Below the pieces are notes generated by a model. That model was given only the letters and a program-made list of their open reading frames with translations, was not told the DNA's origin and ran no database searches. From assembly GCA_009780675.1 (NCBI GenBank), contig WQZP01000001.1:6327-70326 (forward strand): a DNA stretch of 64,000 nucleotides. Direction: 5' to 3'. A program made the translations under genes and the position numbers. Every line of letters begins with the position of its first letter. Positions within the stretch are counted from its first letter, which is position 1. Shown here piece after piece: positions 4,557-7,697 of this stretch. The stretch comes from Spirochaetaceae bacterium. Its GTDB lineage: Bacteria; Spirochaetota; Spirochaetia; CADAEX01.

Positions 4557-5366
4557 TCAAGAAAGTTTAGCTTCTTCCCATAGTTTGTCCATTATTTCAA
4601 GATTTTCATGCGTCATATTGATTCCCTTCTCTGCCATCCCTTTTTCAACTTTTTTAAAACGGTTTAAAAATTTTTCATTTGTTCTATGAAGAGCTATGGA
4701 TGAGTCGATTTTAATAAATCTTGCCATATTGATAACCGAGAAAAGAATATCTCCAAGTTCTTCTTCGATTTTATCTTTATTTATATTTTCCGCAGCAAGT
4801 TCATATTCAAGTTCATTTATTTCTTCTTTTACTTTTCCAAGCACATCTTCAACCTTATTCCAGTCAAAGCCTGCTTTGGCAGCTTTTTTTTGCAGCCTAT
4901 AAGCTCTTTCCAGCGGTGGGATACTCTTTGAGATACCATCAAGTCTTGATTTTGTTTCTTCGTTATTTTCTGGTGCATTGCTGTTGGCAGCTTCGTTTTT
5001 TTTGATTATCTCCCAGTTTGTGATAACTTCGTCCGGAGTTTTTGCAGTGGTATTGGAAAACACATGAGGATGTCTCCTTATAAGTTTTTCCGATACTCTG
5101 TCTATTACTTCTTTAAAAGTAAAAGCATTTTCTTCTTCTTTTATTCTGACAATAAAACTTACTACAAGCAGAATATCGCCAAGTTCTTCTGCTGTATGGA
5201 AGTCATCATTTTTGGATATAGCTTCTATACATTCATATACTTCTTCGAGCAGATTGGTTCTTACAGAGTTTGCTGTTTGCTCCTTGTCCCATGGGCACCC
5301 ATCTTTGCTTCTTAATTTGATTATTACATTATAAAAATTCTCAAAGGATTTTAGTAGGTCGTTCAT
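4557..5366 (-). CDS. mazG: Nucleoside triphosphate pyrophosphohydrolase MazG; the ORF extends to 5516, but an internal Met at 5366 with a GGAGAAA RBS is the likely start
   Basis: Tandem MazG motifs: EEVYECIEAI, ELGDILLVVSF, RRHPHVF, ELGDILFSV. Confidence 0.85.
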   Translation of the reverse strand: MNDLLKSFENFYNVIIKLRSKDGCPWDKEQTANSVRTNLLEEVYECIEAISKNDDFHTAEELGDILLVVSFIVRIKEEENAFTFKEVIDRVSEKLIRRHPHVFSNTTAKTPDEVITNWEIIKKNEAANSNAPENNEETKSRLDGISKSIPPLERAYRLQKKAAKAGFDWNKVEDVLGKVKEEINELEYELAAENINKDKIEEELGDILFSVINMARFIKIDSSIALHRTNEKFLNRFKKVEKGMAEKGINMTHENLEIMDKLWEEAKLS

Positions 5367-5490
5367 TTTTCCATTTCTCCGCATATAACAGGATGTGTTT
5401 TTTATAGTCTCTATTTTATAGATGATTTTTTCAAGATTAATTTTGACAAGTATTGGATAATATAATACTCTAAACGCATGAAACTTATCG

Positions 5491-5751
5491 GTGTTAAAAA
5501 TGAATAGAAGAATCATATTAATTATACTTTTTGTGTTGATTGCAGGTTATATGTTTACGCAACTTGAACCTGCTGAACTTAAAGAAAAATTCACGACGAT
5601 CCACCCTATAACTGCAATAAGTTTAGTTATTATAGTCGCCTACATAGTAGTCAGAATAAAATACAAGAAAAAGCAGACAGAAGAAGATGAAGCAGATTCC
5701 ACTAAAAGTGAATCCCCAGCAGATTCTGATAAAACGGCAGAGGATAAATAA
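5491..5751 (+). CDS. Small 2-TM membrane protein with an acidic C-terminal tail (hypothetical)
   Basis: Two hydrophobic helices followed by a TEEDEADSTKSESPADSDKTAEDK tail. Its 3' end and downstream region form the left copy of a ~160-bp direct repeat. Confidence 0.35.
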   Translation: MLKMNRRIILIILFVLIAGYMFTQLEPAELKEKFTTIHPITAISLVIIVAYIVVRIKYKKKQTEEDEADSTKSESPADSDKTAEDK

Positions 5752-5777
5752 AGCCATCTCAAATTAAAAAATGATGG
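5620..5777. repeat. Left copy of a ~160-bp imperfect direct repeat; the partner copy is at 7451-7611
   Basis: Hand alignment of ...agtcgcctacatagtagtcagaataaaatacaagaaaaagcagacagaagaag...ataaagccatctcaaattaaaaaatgatgg against ...agtcgcctaaatagatagttagaataaaatacaagaaaaaacaggcagaagaag...ataaagccatctcaaacaaaatgaaatgg gives roughly 75% identity with indels. Confidence 0.75.
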
Positions 5778-5794
5778 AGAATTTCCACCGAATT

Positions 5795-5885
5795 CAGTTA
5801 TTAAGGATTACTTAATAACTGCCGCTGATGGCAAGTAAAATGATGTTACTTATCTTTAACTTTCTATAATAGAAAGTTAAAGATA
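5795..5885. promoter_or_regulatory. Two perfect hairpins at the left insert junction: 11-bp stem cagttattaag/cttaataactg (5795-5821) and 14-bp stem tatctttaactttc/gaaagttaaagata (5851-5885)
   Basis: Exact inverted repeats read from the sequence. They lie 3' of both the small ORF (plus strand) and the Mrr-like gene (minus strand), so they could be terminators and/or recombination-site structures. Confidence 0.5.
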
Positions 5886-5976
5886 AATTTGCTTAGATAA
5901 ATAATTATAAGTAAAAAATACTGGATTGAAAAATACCGAAAAGATATTGGCGAAAATTAAGCTTTCAAAAACATTA

Positions 5977-7056
5977 TTAAAAACTTTCTGGAACAAGGGC
6001 TAATTTATTTATAGACTCATGCACTCTGACAAGGGCATCATATACTGCCAAAACATCATCCGAGTTCCATGTGCGTAAAGATTTTTCATCAATTACACCC
6101 TTGCTTTCAATAATTATTTTCTCAAGTTGAGCTTCATCAGCAACAGCAACAACAGCTTGTACTGCCGCATTGCTTTGAGCTTTTTTCAGGTTTAGAATCA
6201 GGCTGTCAATTGATCCTTTAGACTGCACTTCAAAGACGTAAATGGCTTTGCCCATGTTTCCAATTTTGGCTTCCCATACGGCATCTACAACTGCACCTGA
6301 GGCAATGTGTACTTCAGAGCGGCTTTCAAAACCTAGAAGCTCTCCGATTGATACAAGTTTTTCTTTAATTTCATCATGAAGTGATGTTAATTCTTTATTG
6401 GAAATTTTTACAGTATCAATGGTTTTTTCAGTTATTGATAGTACTTTCTTTTCTGCAGATGGCAATACCTCATCCCAAAGGAAGTAATCCACCGACAACA
6501 GATCTGCTTCTTTGATGCCACTTTTAATAAGCCGAGAGGATATTTCTTTTGCAATGCTGCATATTTCCAGATATTTTTTACCAGTATACTGATAGTTGTA
6601 CTTTGGCATCCCATCAATCTCGAGGTATGTAAAACACTGGATTGTAGTCTTATTAAGAATTACATATTCTTGTGGGTTGATATACATTAAAAGTTCGCTT
6701 ATGGTTGCAGGCCCAAAACCTTTAACATCTTTTAAGAAATTATCCCAGCGGGTTTCGATTGGATTTGTGTTAAAAAGTAATTCGGTTAATCGTTTCTTTA
6801 GATTTTCAAACCCATTATCTGCAACAATTTTATCCACTATATATTTTTTATTGCCCCAAATGAGCATTGACCAAAGCTTGCTGATATATTCATAGAAAGC
6901 CTCTACAGTCATTCCTAGAAGTTTATCTTCTGAAAAAGACTGATAATATTCTCTTCGTTCTTTTCGTTCTGCTCTCTGCTCGGAATAATATGTGGGATTA
7001 GTTTCTTGTTTATTTTTATAGTTTTGTATTGCTGTTTGTAATTTTATATCATGCAT
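5977..7056 (-). CDS. Uncharacterized protein with an N-terminal HhH(-GPD-like) DNA-binding module and a C-terminal Mrr-type (PD-(D/E)xK) restriction endonuclease-like domain; candidate modification-dependent nuclease
   Basis: N-terminus: LKDVKGFGPATISELLMYINPQEYVILNKTTIQ resembles the HhH-GPD helix-hairpin-helix (G-h-G..tA..iL), but the usual Asp position holds Asn. C-terminus: VVDAVWEAK...AIYVFEVQSKGS matches the Mrr_cat pattern D...(I/V)xVQxK. A GGAG lies 10 nt upstream of the ATG. Confidence 0.6.
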   Translation of the reverse strand: MHDIKLQTAIQNYKNKQETNPTYYSEQRAERKERREYYQSFSEDKLLGMTVEAFYEYISKLWSMLIWGNKKYIVDKIVADNGFENLKKRLTELLFNTNPIETRWDNFLKDVKGFGPATISELLMYINPQEYVILNKTTIQCFTYLEIDGMPKYNYQYTGKKYLEICSIAKEISSRLIKSGIKEADLLSVDYFLWDEVLPSAEKKVLSITEKTIDTVKISNKELTSLHDEIKEKLVSIGELLGFESRSEVHIASGAVVDAVWEAKIGNMGKAIYVFEVQSKGSIDSLILNLKKAQSNAAVQAVVAVADEAQLEKIIIESKGVIDEKSLRTWNSDDVLAVYDALVRVHESINKLALVPESF

Positions 7057-7227: not shown

Positions 7228-7409
7228 TCAGCTCCAATCGATGTCTTCGTGTCTGGTGTATTTGCCTTGCTTAAGCGCTTCCCTGCCTGCATGAATAGCT
7301 TCTACTTCATACTCCGCACCTAATAGTTTTTGGAATCGCTGATAGACATCTTCATCAAAGCAGGAAATTTGCCATACGTATTCCAAGAAGTCTACACGCT
7401 AGTCTTGCT
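7228..7409 (-). pseudogene. Open frame without an ATG start (possible TTG at 7396), encoding (L)EYVWQISCFDEDVYQRFQKLLGAEYEVEAIHAGREALKQGKYTRHEDIDWS; likely a gene remnant inside the inserted segment
   Basis: Manual translation of the minus strand. The frame is bounded by a stop at about 7410 and TGA at 7228. There is no Met, and the ORF is too short for the supplied ORF track. Confidence 0.3.
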
Positions 7410-7450
7410 ATGGAAGCTAAAAAAGATGGCGTATTTCTTAACCAATATGC

Positions 7451-7611
7451 GCTTTATCAATTAAGTAGTCGCCTAAATAGATAGTTAGAATAAAATACAA
7501 GAAAAAACAGGCAGAAGAAGCTGAGGCAAAATCCGCTAAAATGAATCATCAGCAGATCCCGATAACCCATCTCCCCCAAAAAAATAAAGCCATCTCAAAC
7601 AAAATGAAATG
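7451..7611. repeat. Right copy of the ~160-bp direct repeat; a decayed duplicate of the 3' end and downstream region of the 5491-5751 ORF
   Basis: Aligns to 5620-5777. Its coding frame is interrupted by stops. It ends about 13 nt before the 3' end of tRNA-fMet. Confidence 0.75.
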
Positions 7612-7624
7612 GCTTGTTTTGTGT

Positions 7625-7697
7625 TAGCAGGGGCAGGAGTTGAACCTGCGACCTCCGGGTTATGAGCCCGACGAGCTGCCAGCTGCTCTACCCTGCG
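7625..7697 (-). tRNA. tRNA-Met (CAU), initiator-like
   Basis: The reverse complement CGCAGGGTAGAGCAGCTGGCAGCTCGTCGGGCTCATAACCCGGAGGTCGCAGGTTCAACTCCTGCCCCTGCTA folds as a cloverleaf with anticodon CAT. Three consecutive G-C pairs close the anticodon stem, and position 1-72 is mismatched (C1/U72), both initiator hallmarks. It is close to E. coli tRNA-fMet, and CCA is not encoded. Confidence 0.85.

Follow-up and report, generated by a model that had tools for sequence, protein, structure and literature searches.

Within a 64,000-nucleotide stretch of a Spirochaetaceae bacterium genome (assembly GCA_009780675.1, contig WQZP01000001.1; the whole stretch is hereafter called the window), we analysed a gene for a protein of 359 residues, which lies beside a tRNA-Met gene between the two copies of an imperfect direct repeat. 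The window gene and its product (the window protein) had previously been interpreted from the DNA letters without database searches (the sequence-only reading) as a fusion of a helix-hairpin-helix (HhH) module with an Mrr-type nuclease, located in an inserted islet. The analysis described here indicates that the product is probably a restriction endonuclease of the END class, which acts on modified DNA (type IV-like) as a stand-alone protein and whose design combines an inactivated glycosylase-like sensor with a nuclease. The features of the gene and its surroundings are listed in Table 1.

The position that the sequence-only reading gave for the open reading frame (ORF) was reproduced exactly, on the minus strand, and the three peptides that it quoted were found in the translation: VKGFGPATISELL corresponds to residues 111-123, VVDAVWEAK to residues 256-264 and AIYVFEVQSKGS to residues 271-282. 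A GGAG Shine-Dalgarno sequence lies 10 nt 5' of the ATG. The product is identical (100%) to a deposited protein, 'hypothetical protein FWD87_00060 [Spirochaetaceae bacterium]'. Homologues form 2088 clusters at 90% identity (E<=1e-3) and 679 clusters at 50% identity; they measure approximately 355-365 residues almost throughout and can be aligned end to end. Given thousands of homologous clusters and this end-to-end alignment, the ORF is, judged by sequence conservation, a real gene and no chance ORF.

Table 1. Positions of the window gene, of the parts of its product and of the features of the surrounding islet, numbered along the window.
Feature	Position	Strand	Details
Window gene, complete coding sequence	5977..7056	minus	candidate END-type modification-dependent nuclease; 359 aa plus stop codon, ATG start (ORF list)
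Sensor domain, residues 1-208	6433..7056	minus	all-helical; HhH-GPD fold of the Ogg2/EndoIII type, with predicted loss of catalysis
Helix-hairpin-helix motif, V111-I126	6679..6726	minus	KGFGPATISELL; Ala117 at the presumed place of the EndoIII/OGG1 catalytic Lys
Asn135 codon	6652..6654	minus	18 residues past position 117, at the presumed place of the HhH-GPD catalytic Asp; codon read directly
Interdomain linker, residues 209-219	6400..6432	minus	flexible; mean pLDDT 57 for residues 211-220, <50 at 211-213
Nuclease domain, residues 220-359	5980..6399	minus	PD-(D/E)xK restriction-endonuclease fold; candidate active site H227, E248, D258, E276-V-Q278
Asp258 codon	6283-6285	minus	codon read in the DNA
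Glu276-Val-Gln278 codons	6223-6231	minus	codons read in the DNA
Left direct-repeat copy	5633..5768	plus	left edge of the islet; functional 3' end of an 86-aa membrane ORF (5491..5751)
Palindrome with 11-nt arms	5797-5823		AT-rich, perfect; arms CAGTTATTAAG...CTTAATAACTG; between the left repeat and the stop codon of the window gene
Palindrome with 18-nt arms	5850..5886		AT-rich, perfect (inverted repeat I6, 100% complementary); ~90 nt past the stop codon of the window gene; terminator-like site
52-aa orphan ORF	7228-7386	minus	ends in ...AIHAGREALKQGKYTRHEDIDWS; adjoins the HicB remnant
HicB-family antitoxin remnant	7380..7484	plus	5'-truncated; PF05534, E 6.4e-6, 26.4 bits (cut-off 21), profile positions 24-50/51
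Right direct-repeat copy	7466..7604	plus	right edge of the islet; diverged non-coding duplicate of the 3' end of the small membrane ORF
tRNA-Met (CAT)	7625..7697	minus	flanks the islet; integration hotspot; ARAGORN

Folds and conserved residues of the two domains

The window protein was modelled with AlphaFold2 from a diverse alignment of 46 sequences (predicted local distance difference test, pLDDT, 92.3; predicted template modelling score, pTM, 0.86). In the model, residues 3-208 form a domain made of helices only, and residues 220-350 form a second domain in which a helix is followed by three strands and then by helix, strand, helix, strand and helix; the linker between the two (approximately residues 209-219) has low confidence and falls in a variable, gapped stretch of the family alignment. 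A Foldseek search with this model returned nothing at E<=1e-3. Its high-probability matches were the Ogg2 enzymes 3n0u, 3knt/3fhf and 3fhg as well as MspJI, HindIII and BamHI, AspBHI was likewise among the structural matches, and the viral structures matched were RecB-family, restriction-endonuclease and Mrr-domain proteins. Among solved structures, those of the repair enzymes Ogg and NucS are closest. Given the matches to Ogg2 and restriction-nuclease structures, both fold assignments of the sequence-only reading, HhH-GPD and restriction endonuclease, are right at the superfamily level. Sequence comparison contributed little: a PHROGs search gave one weak match, with no annotated function, and searches of the PDB chains with the protein, with a profile of the full family (A1) and with a profile of the C-terminal domain (A2) gave nothing meaningful. 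What supports the nuclease assignment is thus the model, together with the result of the fold search and the conserved motif described below.

The N-terminal domain is a complete glycosylase fold, consisting of a six-helix barrel plus the HhH, and can be aligned with Ogg over 164 residues at an identity to Ogg2 glycosylases of 14-20%. In Pfam searches, the HhH-GPD profile PF00730 matched neither the window protein nor any of 46 family members. The profile PF21790 ('OGG', putative 8-oxoguanine glycosylase-like) matched two proteins that are 74% identical to the window protein (P0028 and P0033, 30.4 bits with a cut-off of 27, residues 28-178) and 8 of the 46 diverse members at E<=0.01, the window protein itself giving no match. 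The proposal of an HhH-GPD-type N-terminal half was borne out, by model and fold search, as an Ogg2-like fold.

To describe residue conservation in both domains, we used 60 full-length representatives of the family. In E. coli Nth and hOGG1 the motif is spaced G-x-G...(18)...D, and on this basis we take positions 117 and 135 to be equivalent to the catalytic Lys and Asp, respectively. Position 117 is occupied by Ala in 36 and by Ser in 19 representatives, and by Lys in none. Position 135 is Asn in 54 of the 60 and never Asp, in agreement with the earlier observation that an Asn sits where the catalytic Asp is normally found. Neither this Asp, expected of an active HhH-GPD glycosylase, nor the Lys of the bifunctional enzymes would thus appear to be present in the window protein or its family. 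Glu121 is kept in 57 representatives, and Trp62, Lys70 and Tyr162 are near-invariant as well; these four residues are candidates for a base-binding pocket.

In the C-terminal domain, Asp258 on strand 2 and Glu276 on strand 3 (each in 59 of the 60) face one another across a hairpin, as in canonical PD-(D/E)xK sites, and support the earlier assignment of this fold at the superfamily level. His227 (59/60) and Glu248 (50/60) are conserved in addition. At position 278, the place of the 'K', the family carries Gln (37/60), His (19/60) or Glu (4/60), and in no case Lys. The sequence-only reading had proposed a catalytic 'VQxK' motif, the Lys of which (K280) is present in just 17 members; a basic residue at 279/280 is common, not fixed. 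The conserved nuclease motif is instead D258...E276-V-Q/H278, without a lysine, and we take it to resemble the motif variants of BglII (E-x-Q) and BamHI (E-x-E).

The label 'Mrr-type' did not withstand the Pfam search that had been proposed along with it. For PF04471 (Mrr_cat), no match was obtained with the window protein at a threshold as loose as E<=10 or with any of the 46 members at E<=0.01, and together with the poor conservation of K280 this led us to reject an Mrr_cat identity. The window family has the PD-(D/E)xK fold in common with Mrr, and AF1548, the nearest solved nuclease domain to its C-terminal domain, may be Mrr-like, as we presume. That the protein is a true Mrr-family type IV enzyme, in which the HhH acts as a generic, sequence-independent DNA clamp and modification, if sensed at all, is detected elsewhere, is nevertheless improbable in view of the missing profile match, the unconserved lysine of the Q-x-K and an N-terminal domain that is a complete glycosylase fold and not a bare HhH clamp.

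Domain exchange, distribution and neighbourhoods of the family

Both domains also occur with other partners. P0249 joins this nuclease domain (46% identity, E 7e-41) to an EVE modified-base reader, and P0236 joins this sensor domain (40% identity, E 1e-40) to an McrB-like AAA_5 module. Such exchange of both domains is the shuffling of readers and effectors that characterises modification-dependent restriction enzymes.

A separate set of sequences (P0143, P0138, P0164, P0122 and P0124) carries the C-terminal nuclease domain and in some cases a portion of the sensor; identity to the window protein is 73-88%. Their in-frame partners are HsdR (T1R_D3-like), TOPRIM/OLD, N6_Mtase/Eco57I, AAA_21 or HsdS fragments. 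These fusions could be recombination scars in defence islands or chimeras of assembly or gene calling; those to HsdR, HsdS, methyltransferase or TOPRIM fragments were not counted as real architectures, since truncation or chimeric assembly may have produced them.

The family is common in gut and rumen metagenomes and comprises bacterial and archaeal members. Sequences with 70-77% identity are found in metagenome-assembled genomes (MAGs) of Spirochaetaceae, Clostridia and Bacillota, and the family reaches Aenigmarchaeota, Methanothermobacter and haloarchaeal plasmids. This spread, with 70-77% identity across phyla plus archaeal members, points to horizontal transfer. A plasmid search gave only 4 matches, and a tblastn search against phage genomes gave none, hence no sign of phage carriage. 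The archaeal plasmid members (H2-H4, 29-35% identity) stem from Methanothermobacter tenebrarum, Halomarina and Natronosalvus; the matches of the latter two span only residues ~11-292, which may mean a variant C-terminus.

Homologues lie mostly in defence islands. Their neighbours are an Eco57I-type methyltransferase, HipA and AAA_21 (L001); AAA_14, SIR2_2, toxin-antitoxin genes and TIR (L002-L004); Fic and AbiH (L005-L008); a type I restriction-modification (R-M) system, DUF3800 and TIR-WD40 (L036); HsdS, AAA_21 and a PIN toxin-antitoxin on the 212-kb ENA contig ERZ1426829; AbiH, type I/IIG R-M and ThsB-TIR (L039); and barstar and WG-repeat genes on a Monoglobus replicon. At L034 the homologue stands alone, after secG. 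A constant partner is absent across eight independent contexts, and since no neighbour recurs consistently, we regard the gene as a single-gene system, as the sequence-only reading had anticipated in proposing a single-protein nuclease. In the two cases with an adjacent methyltransferase, the latter sits beside a Methylase_S specificity gene and beside an unannotated gene, respectively, as would members of separate R-M systems. A two-gene system with AbiH or a methyltransferase was considered and rejected: the neighbours differ everywhere, and AbiH occurs twice, on opposite sides.

Relation to END nucleases and proposed mode of action

END nucleases were first described in 2025 (Yee et al., bioRxiv 2025, PMC12191111) as defence enzymes that are encoded by single genes and lack a methyltransferase. 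Hypermodified bases are sensed in them by a domain of the EndoIII/Ogg1 type that has been inactivated, and cleavage is carried out by the nuclease fused to it. In the founding member, END-PaCF1, a PLD (HxK) nuclease is N-terminal and the sensor C-terminal. END-Mag (MDV2503288.1), a fusion of a 'NucS-like PD-DExK' with an inactive EndoIII/Ogg domain, was tested experimentally in that study: it restricted the modified-guanine phages Pa5oct and Bas19/20/21/25, and did not restrict modified-T, modified-C or unmodified phages. The sequence-only reading had regarded its domain pairing as not characterised; fusions of an inactive EndoIII/Ogg sensor with a nuclease, END-Mag included, had already been reported.

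Like END-Mag, the window protein combines in a single polypeptide an HhH-GPD domain that has lost its catalytic residues with a PD-(D/E)xK nuclease, and it has the same structural neighbours (SsOgg, MjOgg, TmOgg and NucS). Two further likenesses are the stand-alone gene in defence islands without a cognate methyltransferase and an alternative fusion of the sensor to an McrB-like GTPase. The window protein differs from END-PaCF1 by its N-terminal sensor and C-terminal PD-(D/E)xK domain, the motif of which is E-x-Q/H rather than E-x-K. Among the attributes that mark the END class, an HhH-GPD fold, the loss (by motif spacing) of the catalytic residues, a fused nuclease with a conserved predicted site and a stand-alone gene in defence islands without a dedicated methyltransferase are found in the window protein and its family.

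Other known systems are less similar. The Ogg2 glycosylases (T. maritima Tm1821, 3n0u; M. jannaschii MjOgg, 3knt/3fhf; S. solfataricus, 3fhg; PF21790) have the fold in common with the sensor, whereas the window protein carries, by motif spacing, Ala/Ser and Asn at the places of the catalytic Lys and Asp as well as an added nuclease domain, and the context of its gene is mobile and defence-associated, not housekeeping. MspJI and AspBHI (SRA plus PD-(D/E)xK) and the EVE/PUA-nuclease fusions follow the same logic of a base-flipping reader and a PD-(D/E)xK cutter; unlike in these type IV enzymes, the reader of the window protein has a glycosylase-derived HhH-GPD fold and not an SRA, EVE or PUA beta-barrel. 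From NucS/EndoMS the window protein is set apart by the absence of the NucS N-terminal domain and of a PCNA-binding context; no NucS model was among the Pfam matches, and the two-domain NucS architecture was not found. The likeness to type II endonucleases of the BglII/BamHI type is confined to the fold, as the window protein has neither a sequence-specific recognition module nor a cognate methyltransferase.

In the mode of action that we propose for an END-class enzyme, the Ogg2/EndoIII-type HhH-GPD module, having lost both catalytic residues (Lys to Ala/Ser at position 117, Asp to Asn at position 135), would flip a non-canonical, phage-type hypermodified base into the retained pocket (W62, K70, E121, Y162) without excising it. 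By analogy with END-Mag, the likeliest targets would be 7-deazaguanine-type modified guanines. Binding would bring the C-terminal PD-(D/E)xK nuclease (D258, E276-x-Q/H278, H227, E248) onto the DNA, which would then be cleaved, probably by a dimer. As the host's own DNA would be free of the modification, no methyltransferase should be needed. Horizontal transfer would have brought the gene to tRNA-Met as part of a small integrative islet, which would since have lost its integrase and kept toxin-antitoxin debris alone. Of this scheme, the two folds, the conserved residues, the exchange of both domains, the defence-island setting and the islet are borne out by the data presented here; base flipping, the substrate, cleavage and dimerisation are inferred. 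Taken as a whole, the sequence-only reading was sound in its dead-glycosylase reader, its PD-(D/E)xK cutter and its candidate single-protein nuclease in an islet, and wrong in the Mrr sub-assignment and the 'QxK' motif; its claim of novelty has been overtaken.

Several points weigh against this interpretation. The window protein falls below the threshold of every Pfam, NCBIfam and PADLOC model, all matches being noise, and no sequence link of its C-terminal domain to any solved nuclease was found among the PDB chains. The equivalence of A117 and N135 to the catalytic Lys and Asp is derived from motif spacing, without a displayed structural superposition. Because the canonical Lys of (D/E)xK is missing, predicted catalytic competence rests on the BglII/BamHI analogy. 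Membership in the same family as END-Mag is likely, the two having been compared by description rather than by sequence; MDV2503288.1 was not among the 10 NCBI-sourced family clusters checked by accession. Finally, some homologues stand alone among housekeeping genes, such as that at L034.

A different division of labour would result if the 'dead' glycosylase domain kept a non-canonical excision activity: restriction would possibly proceed in two steps, with base excision by an active Ogg-like domain and cleavage by the nuclease at the abasic site. The chemistry might involve the near-invariant Glu121 (57/60) or a TAG-like action on labile cationic adducts; some HhH glycosylases, for example TAG, work without a catalytic Asp, which provides a precedent. 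Moreover, the stand-alone HhH glycosylases Dag1, Dag2 and relatives are active in defence against modified-guanine (deazaguanine) phages (10.1101/2025.10.29.685425). We nevertheless consider base-excision restriction unlikely, since both canonical catalytic positions are replaced throughout the family, the fusions of the sensor to an McrB-like GTPase and of the nuclease to EVE fit a reader-plus-effector logic, and the END authors judged their homologous domains inactive (PMC12191111).

Within the END-type interpretation, it is conceivable, although doubtful, that the family with an Ogg2-like sensor and a lysine-less E-x-Q/H site forms a lineage distinct from the tested END-Mag, with a substrate specificity of its own set by the pocket (E121, W62, K70, Y162). 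Its substrates may then be, for example, cationic 7-deazaguanine derivatives or a base modification not yet known in gut or termite-gut phages. No new category is opened, as the sensor-plus-nuclease design was already reported in 2025 (PMC12191111); the window protein is a well-supported further example of the END kind, itself recently described. An END-type label would fill an annotation gap in the mapping of defence islands, where a large family (the 679 clusters at 50% identity) is missed by Pfam, NCBIfam and PADLOC and annotated merely as 'hypothetical protein'. It would also imply that anaerobic gut communities, termite-gut spirochaetes included, are under significant pressure from phages whose DNA is hypermodified. 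With 359 aa, these enzymes are compact and could find use as reagents, either to detect hypermodified DNA or to cut it.

The islet at tRNA-Met and the adjacent genes

The direct repeat that brackets the window gene is imperfect and 135 bp long, with 87% (D1), 91% (D2) and 93% (D8) identity over the matched segments and a spacing of 1833-1836 bp. The ~1.7 kb thus enclosed contain the window gene, the two palindromes, the 52-aa orphan ORF and the truncated HicB remnant only. This repeat pattern is the one expected when an integrating element carries its own copy of the end of its target gene, and the divergence of the copies suggests either that the event is old or that recombination with a related strain was the route of acquisition. 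No integrase was found inside the islet. The orphan ORF, for which a Pfam search gave no match, looks like another antitoxin-type fragment, and with the HicB remnant it appears to be debris of a decayed mobile element. The palindromes could be bidirectional terminators or remnants of recombination sites.

For a comparison of synteny we used loci from four related spirochaete MAGs, which share the PrsW/tRNA-Met neighbourhood; the window gene was not found in any of the four. After the same tRNA-Met, one locus carries a fragmented tyrosine integrase (PF00589 pieces; L010 8305-10302) and another the N-terminus of an integrase (Arm-DNA-bind_5, Phage_int_SAM_5; L013 8826-9460). Because relatives have integrases at this site and none has the gene, we regard the tRNA-Met as a hotspot of recurrent integration in this lineage and the window gene as accessory. 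The repeats, the tRNA-Met and the absence of the gene from this site in related spirochaetes together confirm the 'inserted islet' that had been postulated. Conservation in synteny as a housekeeping gene, the finding that the sequence-only reading had named as speaking against its proposal, is ruled out, and an explanation as a syntenic housekeeping gene was rejected.

These data also bear on whether the protein might be a housekeeping or accessory repair endonuclease, whose Ogg-like domain would recognise oxidised or damaged bases such as 8-oxoguanine and whose nuclease would nick beside the lesion in the manner of NucS/EndoMS. Ogg and NucS as closest solved structures, and homologues between housekeeping genes as at L034, would fit such a role. 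The patchy distribution at ~70-77% identity across phyla, the absence of the gene from the syntenic locus of related spirochaetes, its location in an islet with integrase and toxin-antitoxin debris and the prevalence of defence islands among the homologue contexts make it very unlikely. Given the degraded state of the islet (a HicB fragment and no integrase), the gene might alternatively be a non-functional passenger, left over from a decayed mobile element and in this genome neither expressed nor active any more; no strong sigma-70-like promoter was detected directly upstream of the ATG by a scan that was generic and not tuned to spirochaetes. We consider this very unlikely, as the ORF is full length, every conserved family residue is kept and the GGAG ribosome-binding site is present.

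The genes around the islet differ in arrangement between genomes. In the window, the PrsW-like gene and the small membrane ORF are convergent with tRNA-Met between them; in one of the compared loci (L011 1457-2461), the small membrane ORF follows directly downstream of the PrsW-like gene, co-directional and with no tRNA between, which implies a local rearrangement in one lineage. On the other side of the small ORF (5491-5751, plus strand) lies a divergent MazG ORF (4557-5516, minus strand), the longest-ORF ATG of which overlaps the start of the small ORF. With the Pfam MazG domain starting no earlier than residue 80, translation of MazG probably begins at a Met further downstream.
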